Part shown: piece after piece, positions 7,199 to 44,425 of the stretch
Numbering within the stretch: the first letter of the stretch is position 1
How the letters are laid out: each line of letters starts with the position of its first letter
Source of the DNA: an uncultured bacterium
GTDB taxonomy: Bacteria > Oederibacteriota > PGYV01 > CAWJRG01
Length of the DNA: 64,000 nucleotides
NCBI GenBank assembly: GCA_963845185.1
Contig: CAWJRG010000009.1
Span: 536,743 to 600,742, forward strand
Direction of reading: 5' to 3'
Notes under the pieces: model-generated
Told to the model about the DNA's origin: nothing
What the model saw: the letters and a program-made list of their open reading frames with translations, nothing else
Database searches by the model: none
Program-made: the position numbers and the translations under genes

Positions 7199-7199
7199 A

Positions 7200-26120: not shown

Positions 26121-26294
26121 TGATGTCATAAATGGCAGCTGAAAGTCATAAAATATATACTATGGGGATTTGTGGAGCCAGAGGTTATAGGTTAAAAATA
26201 AAAGATTAAAATTCCAAGCTTAAAACCAAAAGCAGAAACAACTGTATTTGCTAAGAAATTTTCACAGAACAATGACGCAGGAGGTCGCAATATT

Positions 26295-27428: not shown

Positions 27429-28878
27429 TTTTTCATTCGAAAAATTATTCTATAAAGAAAACGACAGCATCCCTTTTATAGTAGCCAACATTATTTTAAT
27501 AGCATTTATAACCGTGGTTTTATTTATAATTGCATTGGACCCAAGAAAAGCACTTATAATGATTCTGGGATATTTTTTAATTGTCTATGCTTTCTATACT
27601 ATGGGAAAAGGTATATGCGTTATATACGGAATAATTTACAATTTTTTTATACTTGCCCTAATGCTTACCGCCCATAAAAACGCAAGTGCTCTATGGGGAT
27701 ATTTTTTTATTATGGTTTCAAGCATAGGTCTTATTTTTCAGGTTATAAGTTATATTAATGAAATAGAAGAAGAAAAGAGTTTAATTGAGATAAAAGAAAC
27801 TGAATTTTTAAAGGAAATGAACGACACCAAAAAAAATATTGAAAAAAATAGAAATATGATGGAAGGAAACGAAACAAGGATAGAAAACTATAACCTATTG
27901 AATAAAATAGCCCAGAAGCTTTCCAGCACGCTTCGCAGGACAGATATTGTGAAAATAATTTCTACTGAAATGTCGCGGATAGCTGGAAATAAAAAAATCA
28001 ATTTTCAAGTCATTATCTGGGATGAGGATGCGCAGGCATATTTTCCGGTAGAAACGGATAATATTGAATACGGCACAATGAAAATTTATAAGAAAGACGC
28101 TTTTGATGAGTGGATATTTACTAATAAATTTACTCTGCTGATCAAGAATATCGACGAAGATTTCAGGTTTAAAATGCTTGAAAAGGAAGATTTGAAATTT
28201 AAATCCATGGTAGCTGTTCCGCTTGTGGAAGAAAAAAAAATTATTGGAATTTTAAAGTTTATGGCGGAGGAAGCCAATGTATTCGACACAGAAGACGCCA
28301 GACTTTTTAATTATCTTGGCGATGTGTGCACAACAGCTGTTGAAAACGCTATTCTTTATAAAAAAACCGAGGATCTTGCAATAAAAGACGGACTCACAGG
28401 GCTATTTATACGAAGATATTTTATTGAAAAACTTGAAGAAGAAGTAAGAAGGGCAAGACAAAGCGGAAGTACTTTTTCCTTTTTAATGATTGACCTCGAC
28501 CATTTCAAGGAATGCAATGATACTTACGGGCATCTTGCGGGCGACAGCGTATTAAAAGATCTGGGAACATATTTAGGAAGCTTTGTAAGAGATGTGGATA
28601 TAATAGGCAGGTATGGAGGAGAGGAATTCGCCATTATACTTCCCGATACTTCCTTGAATGGCGCAAGGTTTGTAGCGGAAAGAATCAGGGCCGATTTTGA
28701 AAAGCACCAACTAAAAATATCCGACGAGAAAACTATAAAACTTACATTGAGCATTGGCGGTGTTGAATTCAAAAAGGACCATAAACTTATGGAAATAGTA
28801 AACATGGCCGACAAAGCGCTATATTACTCAAAAGGAAACGGCAGAAATATGGTAACTTTCTGGGAGGACATAAATTGA
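27418..28878 (+). CDS. Membrane-anchored GAF-GGDEF diguanylate cyclase
   Basis: N-terminal TM helices. GGDEF region RRYFIEKLEEE...DLDHFKECNDTYGH...RYGGEEFAIIL. Overlaps the upstream gene by 11 nt. Confidence 0.85.
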   Translation: MSDSFSFEKLFYKENDSIPFIVANIILIAFITVVLFIIALDPRKALIMILGYFLIVYAFYTMGKGICVIYGIIYNFFILALMLTAHKNASALWGYFFIMVSSIGLIFQVISYINEIEEEKSLIEIKETEFLKEMNDTKKNIEKNRNMMEGNETRIENYNLLNKIAQKLSSTLRRTDIVKIISTEMSRIAGNKKINFQVIIWDEDAQAYFPVETDNIEYGTMKIYKKDAFDEWIFTNKFTLLIKNIDEDFRFKMLEKEDLKFKSMVAVPLVEEKKIIGILKFMAEEANVFDTEDARLFNYLGDVCTTAVENAILYKKTEDLAIKDGLTGLFIRRYFIEKLEEEVRRARQSGSTFSFLMIDLDHFKECNDTYGHLAGDSVLKDLGTYLGSFVRDVDIIGRYGGEEFAIILPDTSLNGARFVAERIRADFEKHQLKISDEKTIKLTLSIGGVEFKKDHKLMEIVNMADKALYYSKGNGRNMVTFWEDIN

Positions 28879-30299
28879 ATAGACCCAGGATAAACCTGCT
28901 AATACTTAGCTTGATTTTATACACAGTAACTATCATCAGCAATAAATTATTGGTTAAAGATTCTGATTATAATTCACTTGTATTAAGCCTGCCACTTCTA
29001 ATGCCTGAAATCAGGAGGAGATTTGATAAAATAGGGGCTTTAGTTTTCAGTATAATTTTAGTTGCCGCAACGCTTGTCCTTGCTTTGCCTTCGATAAATG
29101 TCATTTCACGTGAAATTTTCATTATTGTTTTTCTTTTTTTTCTCACGCTTTATTTTTATCCGGATTTTTTTACGGCGTATATAAGAAAAATAAATCAAAA
29201 AGAATTATCGCTTCAGCAAAAAATACATGAGCTTAAAAAGATGAAAGATGAAATTGGATCGCTATCCAAGATTAACGAAGACCTAGAAAAAGAAATAAAG
29301 GATGTAACTTCACTTTATGGCATGATAAAAGAATTAGGTTCCCGGTCCCTGACGCTGACAGACAGCATTGGCAATATAACGGAGACTATAAAAAGAATAA
29401 TCAAATATAACTTCAAAATAAACCTCGATGAAATAAATTTTTTTATGATTGTGAAAAAAGGAAACATTTTTTCGGTAGCGCAGTCATTTGGGTACGATGA
29501 GAATTATTTGAAAGAAAACGAAAAAACAATAATTGAGGCCGTACTGAAAAGAATATCCGATAAGCGCGATATGATATATAGCAATAAACTTGACAATAAA
29601 GAATGGGATAAAAACGAGGCTTTTTTTAATAAAAGTGTGTTATACGTTCCTTTTTATGTGGAAAATAAACTGCTTGGAGTTTTATTCTTTTCCGGGAGCA
29701 AAGAAAATATTTTTGACGAAAAGCAAATTGCAAGCATAAGAATTTTAACAAACCAGATTGCGATATTACTGGAAAAAGTTTCTCTTTACGAAGAAGAAGC
29801 TATGATGTCAAAAATAGACAGTTTAACAGGACTTTATGTACACAGAGAATTTCAGGAACGGCTTGAAAATGAATTAAAGCGAAGTTCCAGATACCAAAAA
29901 GAACTGGGGCTTATAATGGGAGATATTGATTTTTTTAAAAAGATGAACGATTATTACGGGCATCTGGCAGGCGATTATGTACTTAAAACAATAGCACTTA
30001 TTTTAAAAAATAATACGGACCCGGCAGATTCAGTGGCTAGATATGGCGGCGAGGAATTTGTTATTATTTTGCCTGATTCAGACAAGAAAAAAGCTTTTTT
30101 AAAAGCAGAATCAATTAGAAAAGTAATTGAGGATTATGGATTTGCATATAAAGGGACAAAAATGGGCGTAACAATGAGCTTTGGTGTTGCGGCATATCCT
30201 GGCGATGCTATAACGCGAAGATCATTAATTGATAAAGCAGACAAGGCACTTTATAAAGCTAAAGAAACAGGCAGAAATAAAGTATTAAAAAGCGAATGA
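28875..30299 (+). CDS. Membrane-anchored GAF-like-GGDEF diguanylate cyclase
   Basis: TM helices, coiled coil, then HREFQERLENE...DIDFFKKMNDYYGH...RYGGEEFVIIL. The start overlaps the previous stop (ATGA). Confidence 0.85.
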   Translation: MNRPRINLLILSLILYTVTIISNKLLVKDSDYNSLVLSLPLLMPEIRRRFDKIGALVFSIILVAATLVLALPSINVISREIFIIVFLFFLTLYFYPDFFTAYIRKINQKELSLQQKIHELKKMKDEIGSLSKINEDLEKEIKDVTSLYGMIKELGSRSLTLTDSIGNITETIKRIIKYNFKINLDEINFFMIVKKGNIFSVAQSFGYDENYLKENEKTIIEAVLKRISDKRDMIYSNKLDNKEWDKNEAFFNKSVLYVPFYVENKLLGVLFFSGSKENIFDEKQIASIRILTNQIAILLEKVSLYEEEAMMSKIDSLTGLYVHREFQERLENELKRSSRYQKELGLIMGDIDFFKKMNDYYGHLAGDYVLKTIALILKNNTDPADSVARYGGEEFVIILPDSDKKKAFLKAESIRKVIEDYGFAYKGTKMGVTMSFGVAAYPGDAITRRSLIDKADKALYKAKETGRNKVLKSE

Positions 30300-30631: not shown

Positions 30632-31222
30632 ATGGATATTGAAAAAGAAAATGAATTAATTGAACAATCAAAATCAGATCCGAAAGCATTTGAAAAGTTG
30701 TTTGATAATTATTATCATGCCGTTTTTAGATATGCAGCACACAGAACGGGAAATATAGAAGTCTCAAGCGATATTGCGGCTGAAACATTTTTTAAAGCAT
30801 TTAATAAAATTTATACTTATAATCCTAAAATAGCCCCGTTTTCGGCATGGCTTTTTAAAATAGCCAATAATGAAACAAATTATTATTTCAGGAAACACAA
30901 ATATACACCCTTTTCTTATAATGCCGCAGTTGAAGATGGTGGATTCAGGGAACCGGCATCGCCAGTCGATATTGAAAAGGAATTTATGGATGCGCAGGAA
31001 GAAATGGAAAAAAACAAGGATTTTTTACAGGTAAAGGAAGCTATATGCAAATTACCCGCAAGATATCAGGAGGTAATAGTTCTTAAGTTTCTGGAGGATA
31101 AAAAAATTTCCGAAATCAGTTTAATCCTGAATAAAAAAGAAGGAACAATAAAATCACTTATATCCAGGGGTTTGGCAAGATTGCGAAAATATTTTTCCCG
31201 AAAAAGACGCAACCATTTATAA
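30632..31222 (+). CDS. RNA polymerase ECF-type sigma factor (sigma-70 regions 2 and 4)
   Basis: Region 2 sequence YHAVFRYAAHRTGNIEVSSDIAAETFFKAF. Region 4 helix-turn-helix ISEISLILNKKEGTIKSLISRGLARLRK. Confidence 0.85.
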   Translation: MDIEKENELIEQSKSDPKAFEKLFDNYYHAVFRYAAHRTGNIEVSSDIAAETFFKAFNKIYTYNPKIAPFSAWLFKIANNETNYYFRKHKYTPFSYNAAVEDGGFREPASPVDIEKEFMDAQEEMEKNKDFLQVKEAICKLPARYQEVIVLKFLEDKKISEISLILNKKEGTIKSLISRGLARLRKYFSRKRRNHL

Positions 31223-31271
31223 TCTGAAGCATATATTAAGTAACAGCAAGAATAACGAAAGGCGGCTTTAA

Positions 31272-32099
31272 ATGGAAGAAAAAGATATAATTAAAAAGCT
31301 GGAAAAAGCAAGGCTTTCAATGCATGGGTTTAAAGCCCACGGCGCCAGAGTTAAAGCAGTGCTTTTTAGCAGGAAAATTAAAGAGGAAAGAAAATATATA
31401 CCCGAATATTTTAAAATTTTAACAGCCATGGCTGGCATGTTTGTTTTGGCAATTGCGTCTTATTATGTAGTTGATAACATGGATAAAGGTAATAAATTCA
31501 ATAAAAACGGTGGAATCTGGTCAACCTACAGCGATGTTCAGGAAGGTGGAGATTCAAAGGTATGGCCTCCGCCGGCTTCAGCAACTGGAAATGATTTTGT
31601 GATGTCAAAGCCCGGTTACGGAGGAGAGGGTTACGCAGTAAGGATTACAGGCATGACAGGCTCCAAACTCGGCTTAAATTATAATTATTTTGGCGTGGTA
31701 AACAGATTTAGCAGTGATTCTTCCTGCCCCAAATGTAAAGGTGCAAATATTAAAAAATATTCCGGCATAATGTTCAGGATTAAGGGAAAAATACTGTCAG
31801 GCAATCTTTTTTTTATACTGCCTTATGAAGGCAATGAGTGCGTAGCTGAAAGGCTTACATGCAAGAGTTTGACCGGCTATGCGGATTACGAAAAGGACAT
31901 TACAAATGAAGTCAAGCAAAACTGGAACTTTATTGTTATTGATTTCAGAAGAGATTTAAGGCAACCTTATTGGACGCCAAACAATGCAGTTGTGCCGATT
32001 GAGAAAGTACTTGAAAATGTTCACCTTTTCAAGTGGCAGTTTAAAAACGGGGACGGCAATTTAGTGGATATTTGGATTGATAATGTCCGACTTTTCTAA
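31272..32099 (+). CDS. Putative anti-sigma factor/sensor: short cytoplasmic segment, one TM helix, extracytoplasmic CBM-like beta-sandwich domain
   Basis: TM helix ILTAMAGMFVLAIASYYVV. The C-terminal domain ends in NLVDIWIDNVRLF, echoing the xIYVDNVKA ending of the CBM-like N-domain in the downstream hydrolase. Confidence 0.55.
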   Translation: MEEKDIIKKLEKARLSMHGFKAHGARVKAVLFSRKIKEERKYIPEYFKILTAMAGMFVLAIASYYVVDNMDKGNKFNKNGGIWSTYSDVQEGGDSKVWPPPASATGNDFVMSKPGYGGEGYAVRITGMTGSKLGLNYNYFGVVNRFSSDSSCPKCKGANIKKYSGIMFRIKGKILSGNLFFILPYEGNECVAERLTCKSLTGYADYEKDITNEVKQNWNFIVIDFRRDLRQPYWTPNNAVVPIEKVLENVHLFKWQFKNGDGNLVDIWIDNVRLF

Positions 32100-32198
32100 C
32101 GTAAAGATTGAAAAAAGACCGAAAGGAGGCATGTACAGAGTTTAAATCTAGATTATTTGCGAAGTAATTAATTTGCTGAAGAAAATACTGAAAAAAAT

Positions 32199-32228
32199 GT
32201 GGACAAAAAAAAATATATTACTTATAAT
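32199..32228 (+). promoter_or_regulatory. Sigma70-like promoter for the glycoside hydrolase gene (TGGACA-18-TATAAT)
   Basis: tggaca at 32199-32204 and tataat at 32223-32228. Confidence 0.45.
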
Positions 32229-32268
32229 AACAGCACTTAATTGAAAAATATAAAAAGGAGGAAGGAAA

Positions 32269-34590
32269 ATGAAAAAAAGCAAGAAAACATTATTTTTATC
32301 GGCAATTGTTTTTTCTTTATTGTTTATTTTATGTTTTAGTAAGATAGCGTTTGCTGCGGACACCACGCAAGATGCAAAAGCAGTTGAAGCAATGAAAGCA
32401 AGCCATAATATTGTACTGTGGAATTTCGAAGATGGCACAACAGATGGGTGGCATGGTGCAGGCGCAAAATGGGGAAAAGCTTCCTCGGTCAACAACAAAT
32501 CTGATTTTGTAAGCGAAGGAAAATACTCTTTGGAAATTAATTGTAAGGGTTCGACGGACTGGAACCAGGATGCTGCGGTCAATGATGGGCCGTTTCCGAA
32601 AGAGTTTCAAAAACTTGTCGAGATCACAATGGATGTATTCGTGCCAGCAGAGACATTAAAAGGAATGGAATATGCCGAGCTTTATTTCGTGATTTCTGGC
32701 GCTGCAAATACATGGTATCAGCTCAAACAACAGTTAAATCAGGGCTGGAACAATCTGGTATTTAAGGTTGACACGGCAAATGTAAGAGGAGAGATATGGC
32801 ATACGTATATTGTAGTAAATTCAACCGAGCCTTTTAACGGGCCAATCTATGTTGACAATGTAAAAGCAAGGGTACAGGGACCATTGGGCGAAATTAAAGG
32901 TAAAGCCATTGATAAAGACAGTAAACAGCCATTAAAAGGAGCATGTTTTGTAATTGGTGATACTTTGGTTAAAACCGACGACGGTGGAAATTTTCAGGCA
33001 AATGTATACGAGGATGAATATAGTAAATTGGCAATTATTATGCCGGGATATATGGATAAGACAATGGATAAAGTTGTTGTTTGGGGTGGAAAAACCACTG
33101 ATTTAGGAGAAGTTTTAGTCACTAAGAAAAGCGAGCCTAAAGAAGAGCAGGTAAATGTTACAGTAGATGCGTCAAAGGTTATAAGGGAATTTGATCCGCA
33201 CAAGGTTTATGGCAACAACGCAGCAGTGTGGGATAAAAAAGACGGATTTGTTGACAATATTGCACTTGAAAAAATAAGAAAATCAGGTGCCACACTTATT
33301 AGGTTCCCTGGCGGTGATTACGGCAACCTTTATAACTGGAAAACAGGTGAGGTTTATAAATGGGATGGTTCTGTTTCATGGACGCCGGAAATGAATTATT
33401 ATATGTTTATAGCCTTCATGAAAAGGCTTGACCCAATAAATGCCGAAGTACTTCCAACCTTAAATGTAATGACACCTCCAAACAAGACATTAGTGGAAAG
33501 AGTTAAATTTCAGATAGAATGGCTTAAGGACATGAGGGAAAAAGGTCTTAAATTCCGGTACGTTGAAATCGGAAACGAGCCTGATAACAAGCCTGCGGTA
33601 AAAGCACCATCCGATATGAAAAAATTGGCGAAGAAAAAAGACGGTACGGAATTCTGGACAAGTATTGATGATTACTGCGCTGTTTTTAACGAAGCAGCAA
33701 GCATTATAAAAAAAGAGATTCCTGATGTAAAAATTTTGGGTCCAGTTCCAATGCAACCAATGAATCAACTTAGATTGGAAGGAGAGCCATGGAAAGCCGA
33801 AGGCGACCCAAAAGCGCCTTTCTGGCTTGAAAGGTTTTTAAAACTTTCGGGTAAATATGTAGATGTCTTGGTGACACATGAATATCCATTATGGGCAAAT
33901 AACAGCACTGTGGCACTTTTGAAAAGGCCGCAGGAAACATGGCCGGTATATATGCCGAAAATAAAAGCATGGATGAAAAAGTACGTGCCTGAAAAAGCTG
34001 ACACTATGGAAGTTGCCTTAACCGAATGGAACTCGGGGCAAGAAAATCCGACAACGGCACAGCTTATAAACGGTTTGTTTGCGGCAGACTATCTTGCATC
34101 TTTTATTAAGTCGGGTGGAGATATAGCTTGTATCTGGGACATGTATACACAGAAAGCTGGCCAGGGTGGAGGGCACGGAGTTCTTGATGAAGAGTTTGAT
34201 CCTAGCAATAAATATGCGGAAAGGTCATCTTACTGGGCGCTATATATGATGTATAACATGTTGGGTAAAAAAATGGTTAAAGCAGATTCAAATAACCAGG
34301 ATCTTTCCGTTTACGCTACAATGCTTGACGACGGAAATTTGGCGATAATGGCTATAAACAAAACAAGCTTGTCGAAATGCAAGGCAACAATAGATATTTC
34401 CGGCTTTAACGTGGGAAATGGCACTGCGGATGCTTGGCAATTTTCAGATAAGGAATATGTATGGAGCACAATGCTTTTTAGGGCAATTATTAACTCGGGC
34501 CCATCTCAGTTCCAGATTAACAATGTGAAAAACACGTTTACTGAAGATTTCCCGCCTTATTCAATCACGATATTGCATATAAAAAAGTAA
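32269..34590 (+). CDS. Secreted clan GH-A glycoside hydrolase (GH51/GH39/GH79-like) with N-terminal CBM-like domain and CarbopepD_reg-like domain
   Basis: Signal peptide present. Catalytic-domain motifs LIRFPGGDYGNLYNW, YVEIGNEPD (acid/base) and LTEWNSG (nucleophile-like DEWN). Confidence 0.7.
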   Translation: MKKSKKTLFLSAIVFSLLFILCFSKIAFAADTTQDAKAVEAMKASHNIVLWNFEDGTTDGWHGAGAKWGKASSVNNKSDFVSEGKYSLEINCKGSTDWNQDAAVNDGPFPKEFQKLVEITMDVFVPAETLKGMEYAELYFVISGAANTWYQLKQQLNQGWNNLVFKVDTANVRGEIWHTYIVVNSTEPFNGPIYVDNVKARVQGPLGEIKGKAIDKDSKQPLKGACFVIGDTLVKTDDGGNFQANVYEDEYSKLAIIMPGYMDKTMDKVVVWGGKTTDLGEVLVTKKSEPKEEQVNVTVDASKVIREFDPHKVYGNNAAVWDKKDGFVDNIALEKIRKSGATLIRFPGGDYGNLYNWKTGEVYKWDGSVSWTPEMNYYMFIAFMKRLDPINAEVLPTLNVMTPPNKTLVERVKFQIEWLKDMREKGLKFRYVEIGNEPDNKPAVKAPSDMKKLAKKKDGTEFWTSIDDYCAVFNEAASIIKKEIPDVKILGPVPMQPMNQLRLEGEPWKAEGDPKAPFWLERFLKLSGKYVDVLVTHEYPLWANNSTVALLKRPQETWPVYMPKIKAWMKKYVPEKADTMEVALTEWNSGQENPTTAQLINGLFAADYLASFIKSGGDIACIWDMYTQKAGQGGGHGVLDEEFDPSNKYAERSSYWALYMMYNMLGKKMVKADSNNQDLSVYATMLDDGNLAIMAINKTSLSKCKATIDISGFNVGNGTADAWQFSDKEYVWSTMLFRAIINSGPSQFQINNVKNTFTEDFPPYSITILHIKK

Positions 34591-34610
34591 AGATAAACAG
34601 TAGAAAATAT

Positions 34611-34652
34611 AAGCCCTCTTTGCGGAAACGCCGAGAGGGCTTTATATTTTTA
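34611..34652 (+). terminator. Rho-independent terminator
   Basis: Hairpin gccctct-ttgcggaaacgccg-agagggc followed by tttatattttt. Confidence 0.8.
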
Positions 34653-34725: not shown

Positions 34726-34753
34726 TTGACAAAAATACCGATTTTTATATAAT
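34726..34753 (+). promoter_or_regulatory. Sigma70 promoter of the polyamine/GT-C operon (TTGACA-16-TATAAT)
   Basis: ttgaca at 34726-34731 and tataat at 34748-34753. Confidence 0.65.
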
Positions 34754-34795: not shown

Positions 34796-35302
34796 ATGAA
34801 AAACGGAAATAAATCTAAAGTACCTAATCAAGGCATAAGCCAAATAATCCCGACAAAATTTTTTCTTGTGGCAGGACATTCCGAAGGCATGACGCCTCTT
34901 AATGCTTTTGACAGCGCACTTCTTGATGCGGGCATTGGCAACACTAATCTGGTAAAGATGAGCAGTATACTGCCACCCGGAGCGAAAAAAATTAAACCGA
35001 TAAAATTACCTTTAGGAGCGCTCGTGCCCGTAGCTTATGCATCAAAAGTCAGCACACAGGTTGATGAAATTATATCTGCAGGAGTGGCTGTTGCGATACC
35101 AAAAGACCCTAAGAAAAACGGGCTGATTATGGAGTATTCAGGTGCAGGACACAAGGAAGAAATTGAAAGAATAGTCCGCCATATGGCTGAAGAGGGCATG
35201 AGATACAGGGGATATTCGATTAAGGAAATACAGAGCATAGCGGCACAACATAATATTAAAAAAATAGGTGCTGCATATGCTGCAGTAGTGCTGTGGTGGT
35301 AA
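34796..35302 (+). CDS. pdaD: Pyruvoyl-dependent arginine decarboxylase
   Basis: The sequence matches the PdaD family throughout ([40 protein letters not shown]...GLIMEY). The Ser-Ser self-cleavage site is present. Confidence 0.88.
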
Positions 35303-36144
35303 AAGTGAAAGAAATTAGCAGGAAATGGGCTCGTGAAATTTACAAGGATACGGCCTTATCTTATGAAATAATCAAAAAGCTTTACGGCAAGCGAAGCAAA
35401 TTTCAAATGGTGGAGGTCTATAAGACAAAAAAACACGGAAATTTAATGGCGCTTGACGGTTGTTTTATGCTGACTGAAAAAGAAGAATTTGTTTATCATG
35501 AAATGATAGCACATATCCCGCTCTTTTCTCATCCCAACCCACAAAATGTACTAGTTATAGGAGGAGGCGACGGAGGTACAGTAAGAGAAGTCTTGAAGCA
35601 CAAAACAGTCAAGAAAATAGATTTTGTCGAGATTGACGAAGATGTTTACAAAGTTTCTTTAAAATATTTTAAAACTCTTACGGATCCGGTTAAAGATAAC
35701 AAAAAAGTTAATTTTCTTTTTGGGGATGGCATAAAATTTGTTACTGAAACAAGCAATAAATATGATGTTATTTTGATTGATTCAACAGATCCTTCGAATA
35801 TAAGCGGCGGGCTTTTTGGTACAGAATTTTTTAAAAATATCTACAGAATTTTGAATAAAAACGGTATTATGGTAAGCCAGTCTGAAGATCCGTTTTTTGA
35901 TGGGCATATAATAAAAAATGTTCATTCCCGCCTAAAAAAAATATTTAAGCATGTGAGGCTTTATCTTGCTTTTATTCCGACTTATCCATCCGGTTGCTGG
36001 AGTTTTATTTTTGCCTCAAAGCGCCTTACCCCCGATGTAATAAGAAATAAATTTTTAAATAAATTTAAGACAAAATACTATAACTCTGAACTCCATAAAG
36101 CGGCTTTTATTTTGCCGGAATTTGTAAAGGGGCTTACAAAATGA
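35293..36144 (+). CDS. speE: Spermidine synthase
   Basis: [18 protein letters not shown] and ILIDSTDP motifs. GTG start overlaps the pdaD stop. Confidence 0.88.
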
Positions 36145-36992
36145 AACTAACAAAAGAAACTAATTTTATTGGTTGTGATTACGATTTTGAAGAATCCCAA
36201 CTTGTATTGGCAGGAATTCCTTATGATGGTACTTCTTCGTTTAGGCCGGGATCTCGTTTTGCGCCGGATAGCATCAGGAAATTTTCATATTCAATAGAGA
36301 CTTTTTCACCAGATGCCGTTCTTGATATTACTGATTTTAAAATAAGCGATATTGGAAATGTGGAATTACCTTTTGGCAACAGGGAAGAGGTTATTGGTGA
36401 TATAAAAAATCTTGCTGCATATATATTAAAAAACAAAAAAAAAGCTGTATTCATGGGTGGTGAACATCTTTTAAGCTATCCTGTCATAGAAAAGTATAAA
36501 GAAAGGTATAAAGACCTGAAAGTCATATATTTTGATGCGCATGCTGACATGCGTGACGATTATTTGAATGATAAACTATCACATGCATGCGTAGCCAGGC
36601 GTATTACAGAAAATATAGGTAAGGAAAATATTTTTATGTTCGGCGTCAGGTCCTTTGAGAAACAAGAATTTAATTATATAAGGAACAACAATATTTTTTG
36701 CGATTCAAAATGTGAACAAATATGGAACGTTATCGATACTGTAAAATCTTTTCCTGTTTATCTATCACTTGACCTCGATGTTTTTGATCCGGCATGCCTG
36801 CCGGGACTTGGCACGCCTGAAGCCGGTGGTATTTTTTATAATGATTTTGTCGAAATCCTTGAAGGCTTGTCTGAAATTAAAAATATAGTAGCAGCTGACG
36901 TAGTTGAATTATCCCCGACTTTTGACCCATGTGGAAATTCTAGTGTTTTTGCCGCAAAAGTCATGAGGGAACTTATTTTACGTTTAATTTAA
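36141..36992 (+). CDS. speB: Agmatinase (arginase family)
   Basis: Mn-binding motifs GGEHLLSYPV, DAHADM and SLDLDVFDPA. The start overlaps the speE stop by 4 nt. Confidence 0.85.
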   Translation: MKLTKETNFIGCDYDFEESQLVLAGIPYDGTSSFRPGSRFAPDSIRKFSYSIETFSPDAVLDITDFKISDIGNVELPFGNREEVIGDIKNLAAYILKNKKKAVFMGGEHLLSYPVIEKYKERYKDLKVIYFDAHADMRDDYLNDKLSHACVARRITENIGKENIFMFGVRSFEKQEFNYIRNNNIFCDSKCEQIWNVIDTVKSFPVYLSLDLDVFDPACLPGLGTPEAGGIFYNDFVEILEGLSEIKNIVAADVVELSPTFDPCGNSSVFAAKVMRELILRLI

Positions 36993-36993
36993 A

Positions 36994-39369
36994 ATGACTA
37001 GAAAAGATAAATTACTAATATCGACTTTCTTGTTGTTCTCTTTTTTAATATTTTATCCCCAATACATTTCAAATAAAATAATAGCTTGGCTTGACATGAC
37101 ATATTATTTTTTCCCGTTCAGGTTTATAGTTGCGGAATTAGTCAAATCCAATATTTTACCTTTATGGAATCCATATATATACTGCGGAAACCCGTTGATG
37201 GCTAATATGCAATCCGCGGTTTTCTATCCACTTAATGTCTTTTTCTATATAATGCCAATGGATTTGGCCCTTAAAATAACTACGTTTATATCTTTTTTTT
37301 TATTTGCATTTTTTACCTACGCTTTCCTAAGACTACATAAAATATCGGAAGAGGGAAGTTATATTGGAGCAGTGTCTTTTGTTTTTACTTTTTACATTAC
37401 TGCTAAAGCAGTTGAACTAGCTGATTTTAATGTGCTTTTGTGGATGCCTGCGGTCTTGTATTTTACGCGAAAGTATTCTTTTAAGAAAAGGATTTTTGAT
37501 GCTATATTTCTGGTAGGAACACTTTCTATGTCTTTTTTAGGAGGGCATCCGCAAGTTTTTTCTTGCGTTTATTTCATTTTTTTTGCCTTATTTTTTTACC
37601 ATCAACTTTTCGATAGCAAGGATTTTCGTGGCAGTATAAAACCGTTTTGCTTAATAAATGCCTTATTTTTATTTATTGTATTATTGCAGCTACTGCCTAC
37701 AGTAGAATTTATGAAATTATGCAACAGAATAACAACTGGTGTGGATTTTTTAAGAAGTCAACAAAGTTTTATGGAATTAGAACATTTTATATTATTTATT
37801 TTCCCGCCTGCCACGATTTTTATTTCGAAATATACTAGTTTTTTAAATTGGGTATCGCTTATAGAACTGGGAATTTTATCTATTTTACTGTTTGTTTTGG
37901 GAACCTGGAAAACAACCGAAAAAAGATATAGGAATTTTCTTTTTGTTTTATTTGTTTTTTCATTTTTTATTTCATTCTTGGGAAATATGCCTTTTTACAA
38001 ATGGATATACGATACGGTACCTCTTTTGAAAATGATAACCTATCCAAGTAAGATTAATGTATTATGGTTTTTTATAACCTGCATGATGGTAGGTTACGGT
38101 TATGATATTTTATTTCAAGCCAAATCTGTAGAAACTAAAAATTTTAGGATACTAGTTTATTCAGCTGGATTCTTTATTTTTGTTCTTTATTTGATTTGCA
38201 GCGTTTATGAAAGGCAAATCCTGTGGTATTGGAAAAAGTTATTCGACCCGTTAATTAAATTTCAAAAATTATACGAAATAACTGAAAATTATGAAATTTT
38301 TCTTCGCAGTTTTTTTATTTATATGTTTATGCTGTCAGTGTCGTGTTTTTTTGTATATTTAATTTCAGCAAAGGGAATTAAACAACAATATATACAAATA
38401 GCCGTAATATTATTTGTAATTTTTAATATTTTTATTTATCATTGGGGCGGATTTGAAGTTTATGTTGATTATAAAATTTTTACTACGGAATCAAAAACTA
38501 TAAATTTTCTTTTTAAAGACAAGGAAATGAAATTTCGAAGAATTCTTGCTCCGGGAATAAAAAACAGGATTGAGTTTGAAACAAGAGGAACCGATTCGGA
38601 ATCTATATTTGCCTATATTTTTGATACTTTAACCCCGAACATTGGCATGGCAAATCACCTTATTAATGTTGATGGTTTTGATTCGCTTGTAATTTCGAAT
38701 TTTAGCATGTTTAAAAAAAACTTGGCCAGGCTTGATAAGCCATGGGATAACGATGCTTTTAAAATATTAGGTGCTAAATACATATCAAGCAGATCATTGA
38801 TAAATGGTAAAAAAATAAAATTTAGTTTTTCGACGGCAACAAATATTTATCAATATAAAAATCCTGCAGATATTATATTTTTTGTGCCTGCCGTCAATAG
38901 CGACATATTATTTACTGATAATGAAAAGAATATTATTGACGAAATGTTTAACAAGCCTTACAACTGTTTTAATAAGATTTTTTTAAATAAGGAATACGAA
39001 AAATACTTTAAAGATGTTTTAAACCTGAAATCTTCACAAGGAAGCGATAGAACGACAGTAATTAAATACAACATGGTCAATGTAAATACATACTCTGTTT
39101 TTGCTAAAATAAAAGAGCCCGGTTTCTTGATTTGTACGGATAATTATTATCCGGGATGGAATGTATATGTTGACGGCAAAAAAGAAAAATTGTTAAAAGC
39201 GGATTTGACATTTAAAGCTGTATTTTTGAAGGCAGGCGAACATTTTATCAAATTTATATATGAACCGATTAATTTCTATATTTGCGCGTTTGTATCAGTT
39301 ATTTCTCTTTTTATTTTGATTCTGTTTGGATTATTTTACTATAAAAAGGATATAAATTATGCAAACTAA
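36994..39369 (+). CDS. YfhO-family polytopic membrane protein (GT-C-like putative glycosyltransferase)
   Basis: About 13 predicted TM helices. The YfhO-type C-terminal motif is YPGWNVYVDGKKEKLLKADLTFKAVFLKAGEHFIKFIYEP. The start lies 1 nt after the speB stop. Confidence 0.75.
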   Translation: MTRKDKLLISTFLLFSFLIFYPQYISNKIIAWLDMTYYFFPFRFIVAELVKSNILPLWNPYIYCGNPLMANMQSAVFYPLNVFFYIMPMDLALKITTFISFFLFAFFTYAFLRLHKISEEGSYIGAVSFVFTFYITAKAVELADFNVLLWMPAVLYFTRKYSFKKRIFDAIFLVGTLSMSFLGGHPQVFSCVYFIFFALFFYHQLFDSKDFRGSIKPFCLINALFLFIVLLQLLPTVEFMKLCNRITTGVDFLRSQQSFMELEHFILFIFPPATIFISKYTSFLNWVSLIELGILSILLFVLGTWKTTEKRYRNFLFVLFVFSFFISFLGNMPFYKWIYDTVPLLKMITYPSKINVLWFFITCMMVGYGYDILFQAKSVETKNFRILVYSAGFFIFVLYLICSVYERQILWYWKKLFDPLIKFQKLYEITENYEIFLRSFFIYMFMLSVSCFFVYLISAKGIKQQYIQIAVILFVIFNIFIYHWGGFEVYVDYKIFTTESKTINFLFKDKEMKFRRILAPGIKNRIEFETRGTDSESIFAYIFDTLTPNIGMANHLINVDGFDSLVISNFSMFKKNLARLDKPWDNDAFKILGAKYISSRSLINGKKIKFSFSTATNIYQYKNPADIIFFVPAVNSDILFTDNEKNIIDEMFNKPYNCFNKIFLNKEYEKYFKDVLNLKSSQGSDRTTVIKYNMVNVNTYSVFAKIKEPGFLICTDNYYPGWNVYVDGKKEKLLKADLTFKAVFLKAGEHFIKFIYEPINFYICAFVSVISLFILILFGLFYYKKDINYAN

Positions 39370-41362
39370 TTTCAGGAAAAGATTAATATCAATTATCTAT
39401 TTATTAATTGCATTTATTTTGGTTTGGATCGCCAGTGTTAATATGGTTGCGCCCACATTTAATTCCGACGATAGCCCGGAAACAACAGTTGCTTTTCAAA
39501 CTATGGGAATTCAGCATCCTCCCGGTTATCCTCTTGACACTTTAATAGGTAAAATATTTACAATGATTCCTGTTGGTAACGTAATGTTTAGAAGCAATCT
39601 CATGGCAATGTTTTTTAATATTATAACAGCTTTTTTTATATTTATTTTTGTCAAAATAAATCTTCGCATTGATACCAAGGAAAGCCTGGTCAATTATATC
39701 TTTGCTGGGTTATCGGCTCTTTTCTATTTATTCAGTAATTCGGTTTTTTTACAATCGACTTTTGCCAAAGGCAGTATTTACACTCTGAATTCTTTTTTTA
39801 CTATTACAATAGTGGCGCTTCTATTAAATCTAAAAAAGAACATTAAATACTTTTTTCTTTTTTCGTTTTTATACGGGTTATCATTAGGCAATCACTGGCA
39901 AAGCATTATAGTGATTTTTCCGGCGGTTGCTTTTTACCTTTTTATTAACTGGAAGTATTTAAACGCAGGAGCCATTGTTAAAAGCATTTTTTTCTTTATG
40001 ATTGGGATTTCAATCTATATTTTTATTTTTATAAGAAGCACGGAGCAGCCAATTTATTCATGGGGGGATATTAAAAGCCTTAAGGATTTTATTTGGCTGA
40101 TAAGTAGAGCCCAGTATTCTACAGTGGAAGGAGTACATACAATACATAACACAATAAATTTATTAAGGTTCTATATTAATGACCTTTTTTCGAGTCAATA
40201 TCCATTTTTTATTGCCATATTTTTATTCCCGGGAGGTTATTTTCTGTTAAAGAAATTGCGAACAGAAACAATTACGATCTTAATTGCTTACTTATTCCTC
40301 ATCGCAAGCGTAGTAAGGTTTGCAACACCGCCGCCGAATACGGAATGGCTTATTAAAGCATATTTAATTTCGTCCTATATTTTTATTGCAATATTCATGT
40401 CAGCAGGAATATGTTATATAATAAATTCCATAAAAGGATTAAGTAATATAGTAAAACTTTCAGTTTATTTGTTGGTAACTGTTATTATTATTATTTCGCT
40501 AAGGCTTCATGTGCCTGATTATTCACGATATTTTATAGGGTATGATTATTCGGAAAATATTGTTAAAAGTATGCCCCAAGGTTCAATATTTATTGCTGAA
40601 GGAGACATGAATATCGGAGCGGCGCTCTATGAACGTTTAATCAAAAAGGAAAATTTTATATCCATAATACCTGTTGTACTTGGTTATTCGTGGTACCGAG
40701 ATCAATTGATGCGTATTTATGATGGTGATTTAAAGCTTGCGCCGCTTGCGCCCAATATGATAGAGGAGCTTAATAATATTATGATGAATAACAAGGAAAA
40801 GAATATTTATTATTCTAATGTGTACACAAAAGAATGGCAAAAACTTTTACTGAAACCTGAGGGAATCGTTTATAAGGTCTTGACGGATACCTCGATTAAA
40901 AACTATGTCAGCGATGCAAATTTTAATATCTACTCGTACAGGGGTATTATTGATAATGGGGTAAAATACGATGATTTTACAAAAAGGCTCGTTGTCGAAA
41001 ATTATGGGGTTAGTTATTATATGACAGGCGATATTTTTAGGAAATCAGGCAGGAATGATGTGGCTGTAAAATTATATAAAAATGGCTTTGTTTTTTTGCC
41101 GAGCGATTCTGCCTTGCTTAATATAGGTATTTGTTATTACACCATGAAAGATATGCCAAACGCTGAAAAATACTGGAGGGAAGCATTAGAATTGAACCCA
41201 CGCTTGTCTGTTGCTTATTCAAACCTAGCTTTCATTTATTTAAATAAAAATGAAACTGCGAAAGCCTTAGAATATGTTGATAAAGCTTTGGAATATGACC
41301 AAAATAATTCGTCTGCACGCCAGTTAAAAGACGTGCTTAATAAAGCTGGTATTCATAGATAA
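39359..41362 (+). CDS. DUF2723/TMEM260-like GT-C-fold membrane protein with C-terminal TPR repeats (O-mannosyltransferase-like)
   Basis: N-terminal motif DSPETTVAFQTMGIQHPPGYPL, a polytopic TM region, and C-terminal TPR repeats (NAEKYWREALELNP...AYSNLAFIYL). Overlaps the yfhO-like gene by 11 nt. Confidence 0.75.
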   Translation: MQTNFRKRLISIIYLLIAFILVWIASVNMVAPTFNSDDSPETTVAFQTMGIQHPPGYPLDTLIGKIFTMIPVGNVMFRSNLMAMFFNIITAFFIFIFVKINLRIDTKESLVNYIFAGLSALFYLFSNSVFLQSTFAKGSIYTLNSFFTITIVALLLNLKKNIKYFFLFSFLYGLSLGNHWQSIIVIFPAVAFYLFINWKYLNAGAIVKSIFFFMIGISIYIFIFIRSTEQPIYSWGDIKSLKDFIWLISRAQYSTVEGVHTIHNTINLLRFYINDLFSSQYPFFIAIFLFPGGYFLLKKLRTETITILIAYLFLIASVVRFATPPPNTEWLIKAYLISSYIFIAIFMSAGICYIINSIKGLSNIVKLSVYLLVTVIIIISLRLHVPDYSRYFIGYDYSENIVKSMPQGSIFIAEGDMNIGAALYERLIKKENFISIIPVVLGYSWYRDQLMRIYDGDLKLAPLAPNMIEELNNIMMNNKEKNIYYSNVYTKEWQKLLLKPEGIVYKVLTDTSIKNYVSDANFNIYSYRGIIDNGVKYDDFTKRLVVENYGVSYYMTGDIFRKSGRNDVAVKLYKNGFVFLPSDSALLNIGICYYTMKDMPNAEKYWREALELNPRLSVAYSNLAFIYLNKNETAKALEYVDKALEYDQNNSSARQLKDVLNKAGIHR

Positions 41363-41396
41363 AAGCAAGGCATCAAAAATCAAAAGGAAACATAAA

Positions 41397-43484
41397 ATGA
41401 GAATAATTTTCGCTTTTATATCGTTGATAATATTTTTTGTTTTCCTTAGAACAGCGCCACCTACAATTTACCTTGGCGATAGCGGCGAAATCGTAGCTGC
41501 CGCATATAATATGGGTATAGGTCATCCACCGGGCTATCCTTTATTTATGCTTGGGGCTAAAATAGCTTCTTTTGTGCCATTGGGTGATATTGGTTTCAGA
41601 ATTAATCTTTTTTCTGTTTTTTTAGGCATACTTTGTTTTCTGTTATTTTATTTAACAGGCGTCGAATTTGTAAAATTCCTCTTTAAAATAAATAAAAAAG
41701 GGATACTGCCTGTTAAATTAACAGCACTTGCCTTGGCGCTTATATATACCTTTTCAAATATTTTTTGGTTCCAGGCAGTTCATGCAAAAGGCGCTATATA
41801 TACCTTTATGCATCTCGCAGTCTTACTTGCCATTTTTGTAGTTTTAAAATTTAAAACAACAAAAGAAAATAAATATTTTTATCTTGCTTTTTATTTGGCC
41901 GGCTTTTTAACCGTTGTTCACCAATCAACGCTGCTTTTTACGGTTTTTATAGTTGCCATTCTACTGGCAGACAATATAAAAAAATTATATTATAAACGAA
42001 CTTTTTTAGGAATACTGTTTTTTTTGACAGCAGCGATCTCGCCGTATCTATATTTATTTATCAGAATGAAAACCAGGGCTGCTGTTCAGTGGTCAAATAT
42101 AAGCACATTTTCTCAGCTAATCAGCCATATTTTAAGAAGAATTTATTTTCCTAACAGTAGTTATATTTGGGTTTTACCAGATGTTCTGATTTTCAGGCTT
42201 AAATACTATATGGAGGAATGTGTTAGAAATTATAATATATTAGTAATATTTTTTTTAATCGGGCTTTTTATTTTATACAAAAAAAACAAAAAATTGTTTA
42301 TAGGTATATCCGGATTTCTTGTTTTAAACTATACTGCGCTTGTTTTAGGCGTTAACACGGTCGCCGGTTTTGCGCCGAATTCCATATCACCATTTTTTAT
42401 GTATACAACAAAAAATTTTTACATGATGAACGAGATTCTAGCCATGATTATTAGTATTGCTGGACTTTATGGAGCTGTTGAATTATTCATACGAAACGAC
42501 AATTCAAAAAAAACACCATTGTTTATATTTTTGTTTATGGTACCTGTGGCCATGGTTTTGGGTAATTATAAATTAAACGACCTTTCCAGGAATTATCTTA
42601 CCTACGACCGTGCAGAAAATATTTTTAAAACACTGAAAAACGGTGATATTTTATTTGCGAATGAAGATTTTGATGTATTTTCAATACTTTATACTCAATA
42701 TGTTAGGCGCGCTTATAGAAATATACGCACAATTGACATGGCTGGAACTTTTCTGGACACATCAATATACAAAGATTTGAAAAACTCCGAAATAAAAGTT
42801 GTTTTTAATAATAAGGTGCCGGGAGCTGAGAAGTTCAAGTTTCAGCTAACACAGATGATTAAAAATAACGCCGAATTGGATATTTTTAAACAAAACCCTA
42901 GAAAAGTTTACTATGCTTCTTTTACCGAATATACAAAAGAAAAATTCAGGACTAAGCCATATAGCGTAATATTCAAATTATATAAAGAAGATGAAAAAAC
43001 TCCTGATTCGGAACGATTACTAAAATTTTGTTCAATAAGAGACTATTACAACAATAAGAACCTGGATTTATATTGTAAGGATGTACTGGCTAGGTATTTT
43101 TTGCAGAAAGCGCGATTTGCAGCTGTAAATAGCGATATTGAGGTCTTTGAGAAGTATCGGCAGGTAGCTGAGGAATTGGCAGGCGAATGCGGTGACATAT
43201 TAAACCTTATATGTTCAATTTACCTATATGATCTAAAAAAACCGGAATATGCTGTAAAATATATGGAAAAAATTCTAGAATTGGATCCTTATGATTATAA
43301 ATCCTTAAATGTTTTAATAAAACTCTGCATGGAATACGATCCGGAAAAGGCAATTGAATGGCTAAAATATTTATATTCCAAAATAGATGACGAACAGCAA
43401 AGGAATAACATTTTAGTAACGATAACCAAAATAAAAGAAATGCTAGAAAAGGAAACTAATGGAGCCGGAAGTAACCTGCATTAG
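41397..43484 (+). CDS. Second DUF2723/TMEM260-like GT-C-fold membrane protein with C-terminal TPR-like region
   Basis: N-terminal motif GDSGEIVAAAYNMGIGHPPGYPL, then a polytopic TM region and a helical C-terminal repeat region. Confidence 0.75.
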   Translation: MRIIFAFISLIIFFVFLRTAPPTIYLGDSGEIVAAAYNMGIGHPPGYPLFMLGAKIASFVPLGDIGFRINLFSVFLGILCFLLFYLTGVEFVKFLFKINKKGILPVKLTALALALIYTFSNIFWFQAVHAKGAIYTFMHLAVLLAIFVVLKFKTTKENKYFYLAFYLAGFLTVVHQSTLLFTVFIVAILLADNIKKLYYKRTFLGILFFLTAAISPYLYLFIRMKTRAAVQWSNISTFSQLISHILRRIYFPNSSYIWVLPDVLIFRLKYYMEECVRNYNILVIFFLIGLFILYKKNKKLFIGISGFLVLNYTALVLGVNTVAGFAPNSISPFFMYTTKNFYMMNEILAMIISIAGLYGAVELFIRNDNSKKTPLFIFLFMVPVAMVLGNYKLNDLSRNYLTYDRAENIFKTLKNGDILFANEDFDVFSILYTQYVRRAYRNIRTIDMAGTFLDTSIYKDLKNSEIKVVFNNKVPGAEKFKFQLTQMIKNNAELDIFKQNPRKVYYASFTEYTKEKFRTKPYSVIFKLYKEDEKTPDSERLLKFCSIRDYYNNKNLDLYCKDVLARYFLQKARFAAVNSDIEVFEKYRQVAEELAGECGDILNLICSIYLYDLKKPEYAVKYMEKILELDPYDYKSLNVLIKLCMEYDPEKAIEWLKYLYSKIDDEQQRNNILVTITKIKEMLEKETNGAGSNLH

Positions 43485-43738
43485 GCTGAAATATTTTTAT
43501 AGTTATGTATATCCGGATGCCAAAGGGCATAGGAGACTACATAAATATTTTTTTAAATAACTGCAGAATGCAATAAATACATTATATAAAGGTGCAATTG
43601 GCGAAAAATTAGCTGCGGAAATAAAAGAACGGCTAACATACTGGTTTATTCTGCATATCCGGAAAAGTGGCATAAAACTCAGTTCATATGTGTTGAAAAA
43701 GCAGCTCCTATGCTGCTTTTAAGCTAAAAACATGCATA

Positions 43739-43767
43739 TTGACAAAGATTTAAATAGCGGATATAAT
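43739..43767 (+). promoter_or_regulatory. Consensus sigma70 promoter (TTGACA-17-TATAAT) for the orphan gene at 43805
   Basis: ttgaca at 43739-43744, 17-nt spacer, tataat at 43762-43767. A terminator-like hairpin agcagc-tcctat-gctgctttt sits about 20 nt upstream. Confidence 0.8.
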
Positions 43768-44348: not shown

Positions 44349-44425
44349 GGGCGCATAGCTCAGTTGGTTAGAGTATCAGCTCGACAAGCTGAGGGTCACT
44401 GGTTCGATCCCAGTTGCGCCCACCA
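44349..44425 (+). tRNA. tRNA-Val (anticodon GAC) with encoded CCA
   Basis: Acceptor stem gggcgca/tgcgccc. D-arm gctcagttggttagagt. Anticodon stem tcagc/gctga with loop tcGACaa. T-arm gggtcactggttcgatcccagt. 3' acca. Confidence 0.9.

Follow-up and report, generated by a model that had tools for sequence, protein, structure and literature searches.

A spermidine operon extended by YfhO-family and TMEM260-like GT-C membrane protein genes is conserved across the candidate phylum Goldbacteria

The DNA analysed here, hereafter the window, is a stretch of 64,000 nucleotides (nt) from an uncultured bacterium (contig CAWJRG010000009.1 of assembly GCA_963845185.1), in which six open reading frames (ORFs) on the + strand, at positions 34796-43484, form a single run. 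The first three encode the polyamine enzymes PdaD, SpeE and SpeB and the last three encode membrane proteins, namely a YfhO-family protein and two relatives of human TMEM260 (DUF2723), here called D1 and D2. The first five genes, pdaD-speE-speB-yfhO-D1, are a lineage-defining operon, conserved across the candidate phylum Goldbacteria to a degree that exceeds chance and extended to six genes in the window. This fusion of polyamine and GT-C glycosyltransferase genes appears to be undescribed; we found no relevant literature on YfhO together with spermidine, on polyamines together with the GT-C fold, or on DUF2723 in bacteria.

Results

Organisation of the gene run

The six genes and the signals that surround them are listed in Table 1. 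In order along the run, the first two junctions overlap by 10 and 4 nt, the third is a gap of 1 nt and the fourth overlaps by 11 nt, all exactly as recorded in the first-pass annotation of this DNA together with the ORF coordinates; the fifth, in front of D2, is a 34-nt gap that the annotation had left out. The 10-nt overlap between pdaD and speE arises because the longest-ORF start of speE, GTG 35293, is taken. In a collection of 15 billion proteins the SpeE protein beginning at this codon had no exact match, and GTG 35305, which lies 2 nt after the pdaD stop with GGTGG in front of it, is the likelier start; pdaD and speE abut with either. Ribosome-binding sites of the AGGAG or AAGGA type precede pdaD, speB, D1 and D2. 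The yfhO gene starts 1 nt past the speB stop and lacks a Shine-Dalgarno sequence of its own, an arrangement that suggests termination-reinitiation at this junction, and translation of yfhO is therefore probably dependent on that of speB.

Table 1. Genes and predicted transcription signals of the cassette in the window
Feature	Position	Strand	Description
Intrinsic terminator of the upstream unit	34606..34650	+	Hairpin of -23.9 kcal/mol, z -5.7, then UUUAUAUUUUU (U-run)
Sigma-70-type promoter	34726..34753	+	TTGACA-N16-TATAAT, 12/12 match
pdaD	34796-35302	+	Predicted pyruvoyl-dependent arginine decarboxylase, Arg to agmatine; AGGAG ribosome-binding site
speE	35293-36144	+	Predicted polyamine aminopropyltransferase (spermidine and/or N1-aminopropylagmatine synthase)
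speB	36141-36992	+	Agmatinase-family ureohydrolase; agmatine to putrescine, or N1-aminopropylagmatine to spermidine
yfhO	36994-39369	+	YfhO-family GT-C glycosyltransferase, 791 amino acids (aa)
D1	39359-41362	+	TMEM260-like (DUF2723) GT-C glycosyltransferase with C-terminal TPR, 667 aa
D2	41397-43484	+	Second, divergent TMEM260-like GT-C protein, 695 aa; TPR-like C-terminus degenerate
Two terminator-like hairpins	43488..43725	+	In the 320-nt spacer 3' of D2

The promoter at 34726 and the terminator at about 34611 that the first-pass annotation had placed upstream of pdaD are both real. The terminator, which a simple scan misses because its loop is long, is the 5' boundary of the operon and ends a preceding unit of extracytoplasmic function (ECF) sigma factor, anti-sigma factor and secreted GH-like protein. 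The two promoter hexamers and their 16-nt spacer recur, at 11-12/12, ahead of pdaD in 10 of the 13 related loci. Ahead of yfhO, no internal promoter is conserved at 10/12 or better in the 3' half of speB among 12 loci, and an Rfam search found no riboswitch or other known RNA in the leader, its sole match in the whole window being the tRNA gene at 44349-44422. Beyond D2, the two hairpins (-16.4 kcal/mol, z -2.8, followed by a U-run; and -14.2 kcal/mol, z -3.3, followed by UUUU) mark the probable 3' end of the unit, and the next 12/12 promoter, at 43739, lies ahead of the following gene. The tight junctions, the conserved consensus promoter and the lack of a conserved internal one indicate that all the genes probably belong to one transcription unit. 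The six-gene unit originally proposed stands in that sense, whereas the conserved unit has only five genes.

Conservation of the five-gene core

Loci for comparison came from a metagenome scan with the D1 family, from exact-protein look-ups and from one genome match. The order pdaD-speE-speB-yfhO-D1 is identical in about 13 distinct lineages, with all junctions between -37 and +36 nt (the window, L002, L005, L008, L011, L012, L014, L017, L018, L019, L084, L087 and L092, plus near-duplicates), so that the earlier expectation of a gene order shared by related genomes is borne out for the five-gene core. This set is deeply diverged, since the window and L008 share only 62% identity in ribosomal protein S9. 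Identity to the window proteins is 77-91% for PdaD, 58-81% for SpeE, 48-83% for SpeB, 32-61% for YfhO and 41-67% for D1. Despite the range of these values the ATGA overlap of speE and speB is retained in 13 of 14 loci, speB and yfhO are separated by -20 to +1 nt and yfhO and D1 by -37 to +31 nt, and none of the approximately 52 internal junctions is interrupted.

The surroundings are more varied. At least five kinds of downstream neighbour occur: D2 (in the window only), a 152-aa gene, GH9, GH16, a PorV-like gene, or the series hflX-lpxB-waaA-lpxK. Genes have also been inserted upstream, for example a toxin-antitoxin pair (L084) and a set of six genes (L018). PorV-like and TPR genes were considered as conserved downstream partners and rejected, as only L084 and L085 have one and the recurrent gene is hflX.

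Where the sources name an organism, it is mostly Candidatus Goldbacteria/Goldiibacteriota. L087 corresponds to GCA_002839855.1, whose PdaD is sourced to Candidatus Goldiibacteriota bacterium HGW-Gold… (name truncated), and shares with the window the upstream order HDOD, GAF-HD, GGDEF, GGDEF, sigma factor. The scan of genome contigs yielded one related genome locus only, L002, which is recorded as Methylomirabilis; this and the few labels reading 'Spirochaetia' or 'Firmicutes' are probably binning errors, L002 being most likely a mis-binned metagenome-assembled genome. The group of YfhO orthologues stops sharply at 32% identity, the next homologue (30%) having no polyamine genes beside it. This homologue, the nearest outside the cassette clade (L093, 72-4575), lies between a prepilin-type (N_methyl) gene and pilM/pilN, which may be a pilin glycosylation context.

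Outgroup loci indicate how the composite could have arisen. The nearest outgroup PdaD (about 65% identical, 155 aa) is encoded in speH-pdaD-speE-speB operons that are followed by dksA and hold no GT-C genes, and PdaD, SpeE and SpeB of the outgroup share 66%, 49% and 43% identity with those of the window; another outgroup locus has pdaD-speB only. A YfhO homologue from Firestonebacteria sits in a YfhO-TPR-YfhO-GT2 series, the usual arrangement with a lipid-sugar synthase. From the GT-C-free outgroup operons and the GT2-associated YfhO it follows that the cassette is a lineage-specific fusion of two known modules, in which two GT-C genes were added behind an ancestral polyamine operon whose leading gene, speH, was lost. 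Two outgroup proteins of about 294 aa (P0306 and P0317) contain both AdoMet_dc and PvlArgDC domains and are either SpeH-PdaD fusions or read-through gene calls.

The polyamine enzymes

PdaD scores 164.6 bits against the equivalog model TIGR00286 (cut-off 106.95) and 157 bits against PF01862, over profile positions 1-161. It contains a Ser-Ser motif, MSSILPP, which may be the self-cleavage site that, as in the archaeal enzyme, generates the pyruvoyl group. SpeE scores 353.2 bits against NF002010 (cut-off 260) and 316.4 bits against TIGR00417 (cut-off 249.55) and matches PF01564 and PF17284, for the catalytic and tetramerisation domains of spermidine synthase. SpeB scores 255.6 bits against the agmatinase equivalog TIGR01230 (cut-off 174.3) and 245 bits against PF00491. 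By these scores all three look like ordinary enzymes of free-polyamine synthesis.

The GT-C membrane proteins

Both D1 and D2 match PF11028 above its curated cut-off (87.2 and 105.8 bits, respectively). The profile of the D1 family aligns with the solved structure of human TMEM260 (9rql) at E 6.4e-46, positions 14-465 against 31-496, which covers the whole membrane domain, and the single D1 sequence does so at E 5.8e-22. Human TMEM260, the closest characterised relative of D1, has been proven to O-mannosylate proteins and has a TPR domain on the lumenal side, and its mutation D52A abolishes O-mannosylation (PMC10214176). Asp38 of D1 is aligned with this catalytic Asp52, and Asp38, Glu41 and the motif QHPPGY are invariant in 33 family members. 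An AlphaFold2 model of D1 has a confidence (predicted local distance difference test) of 90.1 and is matched in Foldseek by PglB, STT3 and ArnT, as well as by TPR proteins. TPR_1 and TPR_2 are above cut-off at residues 585-650 of D1, with helical repeats at 539-662 in the model; by homology to the 11-helix topology of TMEM260 this domain is predicted to be non-cytoplasmic.

D2 is 26% identical to D1 and keeps the sequence GDSGE, with Asp28 aligned to TMEM260 Asp52; the HPPGYPL motif takes the form GHPPGYPL in D2 and QHPPGYPL in D1. No TPR is above threshold in D2, where the best match has E 0.03, so that of the two 'DUF2723-TPR' proteins originally described both are DUF2723 proteins and only D1 has a recognisable TPR. 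D2 adjoins the cassette in the window alone, with no counterpart adjoining it in other loci, and the genome of the window contains at least four DUF2723 paralogues.

The Pfam match of the fourth gene product to YfhO is marginal (32.1 against 28.5 bits, in the C-terminal 80 aa only). The protein is nonetheless a member of the family through its homologues and its structure: PF09586 is found in nearly all of the 120 YfhO homologues listed, several of which are named 'YfhO family protein' by NCBI, and the protein has a GT-C fold, a periplasmic C-terminal beta-sandwich domain and a final transmembrane helix. Asp34, in its first outer loop, is invariant in 44 sequences down to 19% identity. The model of this protein, like that of D1, has ArnT as one of its structural neighbours. 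The three membrane proteins are thus GT-C-like, as first suggested, and the catalytic Asp, whose loss was the stated test of that view, is kept in all of them. The role assigned to YfhO proteins at that stage, glycosylation of teichoic acids, is not their only one, as the streptococcal members PgtC2, PgfM1 and PgfM2 glycosylate extracytoplasmic Ser/Thr-rich regions with undecaprenyl-phosphate-linked sugars (10.1101/2024.05.05.592596).

The membrane protein genes coincide with a dip in GC content (29-33%, 36000-42000) and a negative AT skew. These were considered as signs of horizontal acquisition and rejected as uninformative, because hydrophobic proteins rich in Phe, Ile and Leu give such a composition and the genes are vertically conserved.

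Threonine-rich proteins and the contexts of DUF2723 paralogues

The presence of Thr/Pro-rich secreted proteins in the window, noted in the first-pass annotation, was confirmed. The + strand gene at 7095-11312 encodes a protein of 1405 aa with 41-45% Thr over about 900 aa in TPTxT-type repeats, and with a match to the C-terminal sorting domain of the type IX secretion system (T9SS; Por_Secre_tail). The GH9 and GH5 enzymes of the window have PT-rich linkers; the C-terminus of GH9 resembles a T9SS sorting domain by eye only and GH5 has no such match. The Thr repeat also gives rise to long shadow ORFs, both in its other frames and on the complementary strand (8381-10000 on the - strand is one example).

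In L007, L020/L021 and L024 a hyper-Thr protein with a T9SS sorting domain is encoded immediately upstream of a DUF2723-TPR paralogue, on the same strand and within 230 nt of it, and in L016 two hyper-Thr genes lie within 2.6 kb of a DUF2723 paralogue. Immediate adjacency of this kind is seen three times against about 0.4 expected, by a post hoc estimate. It is possible that the hyper-Thr proteins and the adjacent paralogues are dedicated acceptor-enzyme pairs. These giant secreted proteins (L007 154-2052; L020 1-5175 / L021 3460-9819; L024 276-3923; L016 6157-7983 and 14500-20565) reach 53% Thr per 80 aa and have Por_Secre_tail or FlgD_ig tails and beta-propellers. The paralogue in L007 is the only one with a match, albeit weak, to PMT_2.

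Two further settings recur among the paralogues. In L028, L030-L033, L036, L039, L042 and L052 a DUF2723-TPR gene is accompanied by genes for an ECF sigma factor, DUF3106, an O-antigen-ligase-like Wzy_C-TPR protein, GT4 and two TPR proteins, the families having been assigned by Pfam on L039 only. Ten loci contain a distant DUF2723-TPR gene (L037, L038, L044, L046, L048, L049, L050, L059, L061 and L062); directly upstream of it lies a small protein that clusters with the PilZ-domain protein of L050 (10/10), and convergent downstream is a cluster-mate of the MerR-GGDEF gene of L050 (9/10), which suggests cyclic di-GMP (c-di-GMP) control of this enzyme family. These two contexts point to surface glycan and c-di-GMP biology.

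The remainder of the window

The separate + strand unit at 30632-34590, which precedes the cassette in at least seven loci, encodes an ECF-type sigma factor, a 275-aa membrane protein that resembles an anti-sigma factor and has a domain outside the cytoplasm, and a secreted protein of 773 aa with an NEP motif and a weak match to CBM4_9; the unit resembles the sigma/anti-sigma pairs that sense polysaccharides. Further upstream (25254-30299, +) is a c-di-GMP cluster of HDOD, GAF with an HD-GYP-type HD_5, and two GAF-GGDEF genes, the order of which is matched in GCA_002839855.1 (L087). On the downstream side the tRNA gene (+, 67 bits) is overlapped by the longest-ORF start of a GH2 gene (TTG 44364), whose real start must therefore lie further downstream. 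At its beginning the window encodes the C-terminal portion of the R subunit of a type I restriction enzyme (59-1516, +), and it includes core chromosomal genes (gap, pgk, tpi, secG, argS, polA, coaE, rplM, rpsI and ilv/leu genes). All ORFs with a family match over 1-64000 are on the + strand and the cumulative GC skew climbs steadily; the window looks like part of one replichore with a very strong gene-strand bias.

Discussion

For this cassette the genes present, the folds and families of their products, the catalytic residues, the signals of an operon and the conservation are shown, and operon status, GT-C identity and conservation are solid. The interpretation that we favour, with a probability of roughly one half, is that the operon co-expresses two envelope modules, one supplying spermidine and the other O-glycosylating Ser/Thr-rich secreted proteins, and that a regulatory link connects the two. 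The pdaD-speE-speB operon would have been extended at its 3' end by the translationally coupled YfhO and TMEM260-like/TPR GT-C genes, the third, divergent gene being added in the window, and the one conserved consensus promoter would drive them all. PdaD would convert arginine to agmatine, and SpeE with SpeB would carry agmatine to spermidine by way of putrescine or N1-aminopropylagmatine, the second route being considered because most bacterial spermidine synthases accept agmatine and also make N1-aminopropylagmatine (PMC11107197). The GT-C enzymes, with their catalytic Asp in the first periplasmic loop, would move sugar from a polyprenyl-phosphate-sugar to acceptors on the periplasmic side, of which the likeliest are stretches rich in Ser/Thr within exported proteins, for instance the PT linkers of GH9 and GH5 and the hyper-Thr cargo of T9SS type; the TPR domain of D1 is probably the acceptor-binding module. 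The two modules would be biochemically independent and linked through the co-expression of two envelope or surface functions, one supplying a polycation and the other glycosylating the surface. What we infer here is the donor, the acceptor, the sugar and why the modules are coupled.

Several observations weigh against this interpretation. AdoMet decarboxylase is absent from the window and from every cassette locus (tblastn at E<=1; regular-expression search), which leaves the spermidine pathway locally incomplete, and decarboxylated S-adenosylmethionine must therefore come from elsewhere in the genome. Among the approximately 52 ORFs of the window, searched with Pfam, there is no GT2 polyprenyl-phosphate sugar synthase and no flippase of the GtrA/GtcA type, although such partners may be encoded in another part of the genome. 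The hyper-Thr protein of the window is 28 kb from the cassette, and the number of hyper-Thr genes no more than 3 kb away from a DUF2723 gene is not significantly raised (5 observed, 3.2 expected, P = 0.22). Co-transcription is deduced from the sequence only. The blocks upstream and downstream of the cassette are also partly syntenic across the clade, and some of its conservation could therefore be inherited synteny. Finally, in at least six lineages (L012, L014, L017, L019, L087 and L092) genes of lipid A and core synthesis follow the cassette on the same strand after only 66-307 nt (hflX, a GFO/IDH/MocA oxidoreductase, lpxB, waaA, lpxK and GT9 heptosyltransferases), which would fit a role directed at lipopolysaccharide (LPS) equally well.

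This last point speaks for an ArnT-like function, in which the GT-C enzymes would modify LPS, lipid A or another outer-membrane glycolipid and the cassette would form the 5' portion of a supra-operon for LPS. ArnT is a structural neighbour of both models, and the organism is diderm, as seen from a BamB-like gene, the lpx genes of its relatives and the T9SS-type sorting domains. Pseudomonas aeruginosa, moreover, co-induces spermidine synthesis and the addition of aminoarabinose to lipid A as parallel modifications of surface charge (PMC4295883). The cassette might then be a module for the charge and stability of the outer membrane, in which anionic LPS is coated by spermidine and receives sugars from the GT-C enzymes. 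The lpx block does not adjoin the cassette in the window, L005, L002, L008, L011 or L084, no donor genes of the aminoarabinose type (arnA, B, C, D) are present, and D1 is far closer in sequence to TMEM260 (E 6e-46) than to ArnT and has a TPR domain typical of protein-directed GT-C enzymes (PMC10214176). An LPS-directed function seems to us unlikely.

No better supported, in our estimation, is a linkage that is historical and functionally neutral, unrelated modules having been joined in the ancestor of the Goldbacteria and never separated, much as in other housekeeping operons of mixed content. Known chemistry suggests no shared substrate or intermediate, the literature offered no connection between polyamines and GT-C enzymes, and the GGDEF, ECF sigma, anti-sigma and GH-like genes upstream and the hflX-lpx genes downstream are likewise syntenic in many loci, so that the chromosomal region is conservative overall. 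Yet the flanking junctions have been broken repeatedly, by the insertions in L084 and L018 and by the at least five kinds of downstream neighbour, against 0 of about 52 inside the cassette; overlaps or 1-nt gaps are retained between proteins that are 32-60% identical; and at the speB-yfhO junction the lack of a separate Shine-Dalgarno sequence makes yfhO translation probably dependent on speB. We regard neutrality as unlikely.

That the polyamine takes part chemically in a single pathway, the GT-C enzymes building or attaching a polyamine-bearing glycan or transferring a polyamine or an agmatine-derived cationic group to a surface polymer or protein, is very unlikely. The points in its favour are circumstantial: the translational coupling of speB and yfhO is strict and phylum-wide, the loss of speH relative to the outgroup operon hints at a changed role of the polyamine enzymes, and ArnT with aminoarabinose is a known case of a cationic surface modification made by a GT-C enzyme. 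Against it, PdaD, SpeE and SpeB score as ordinary free-polyamine equivalogs, no enzyme able to join a polyamine to a sugar or to a lipid carrier is present (ligase, ATP-grasp or GT2), characterised GT-C enzymes all use sugars linked to polyprenyl (di)phosphate, and no support was found in the literature. Nothing in the sequence connects polyamines with the glycosylation chemistry, such participation is unsupported, and we give very little credence to agmatine or spermidine being incorporated into, or required for, the GT-C product, for instance as a polyamine-bearing surface glycan or glycoprotein of the Goldbacteria.

The main value of the cassette is that it provides a defined genomic context and candidate substrates for bacterial TMEM260-like enzymes, which have no assigned function, their human homologue being a disease-linked protein O-mannosyltransferase. 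It also supplies a clean orthologous set in which, throughout a candidate phylum of cellulose degraders, a TMEM260-like and YfhO pair is fixed in one operon with the genes for making spermidine. Were the coupling functional, polyamine metabolism would be tied to surface glycosylation more closely than by the regulon-level link of Pseudomonas; were it only regulatory, the cassette would be a marker operon for the Goldiibacteriota, a polyamine operon remodelled by the loss of speH and the gain of GT-C genes. Should the polyamine prove to be part of the pathway, it would be a new cationic decoration of the envelope and the first chemistry assigned to bacterial TMEM260-like enzymes.

Comparison with known systems

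Classical spermidine operons, of which speEB of Bacillus subtilis is one, are the first point of comparison. The speH-pdaD-speE-speB operons of the outgroup (L089/L090) have the same three enzymes in the same order, with the same 4-nt overlap between speE and speB. The cassette differs from them in having no AdoMet decarboxylase gene and in the addition of two to three large, translationally coupled GT-C membrane proteins.

D1 and D2 share with human TMEM260 (PDB 9rql), whose acceptors are IPT domains (PMC10214176), homology across the 11-helix membrane domain, the catalytic Asp (Asp52, corresponding to Asp38 and Asp28), the HPPGYPL motif and, in D1, a C-terminal TPR, the TPR-like C-terminus of D2 being degenerate. 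They are, however, bacterial and predicted to be periplasmic, they belong to an expanded family, and their donor would be of the undecaprenyl type rather than dolichol-phosphate-mannose. Unlike enzymes of the PMT type, the GT-C proteins of the cassette have no PMT or MIR domain.

YfhO proteins are known from the CsbB-GtcA-YfhO system of B. subtilis and Listeria, which glycosylates teichoic acids (PMC5836110), and from the streptococcal GtrB-PgtC2 and Pgf systems, which act on Ser/Thr-rich regions of proteins (10.1101/2024.05.05.592596). PF09586, the GT-C fold, the periplasmic C-terminal beta-sandwich, the final transmembrane helix and the invariant Asp of the first outer loop are common to these systems and the cassette, whose yfhO gene nevertheless adjoins polyamine genes instead of a GT2 synthase or GtrA-like flippase, in a diderm organism without teichoic acids.

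A parallel to the coupling itself is found in P. aeruginosa. The transferase of the arn operon (arnBCADTEF), ArnT, is a GT-C enzyme, and under the control of PhoPQ/PmrAB polyamine synthesis is co-expressed with a GT-C-dependent modification of the envelope, again in a diderm. The spermidine genes PA4773-PA4774 and the arn operon are co-induced there and both are described as masking the negative charge of the outer surface (PMC4295883), so that the first-pass annotation went too far in stating that a coupling of polyamine synthesis to GT-C enzymes has no known precedent; there is one, if looser. In P. aeruginosa separate operons are joined in one regulon and ArnT acts on lipid A with aminoarabinose, whereas the Goldbacteria cassette unites polyamine genes with YfhO- and TMEM260-type enzymes in one operon that has no aminoarabinose genes.

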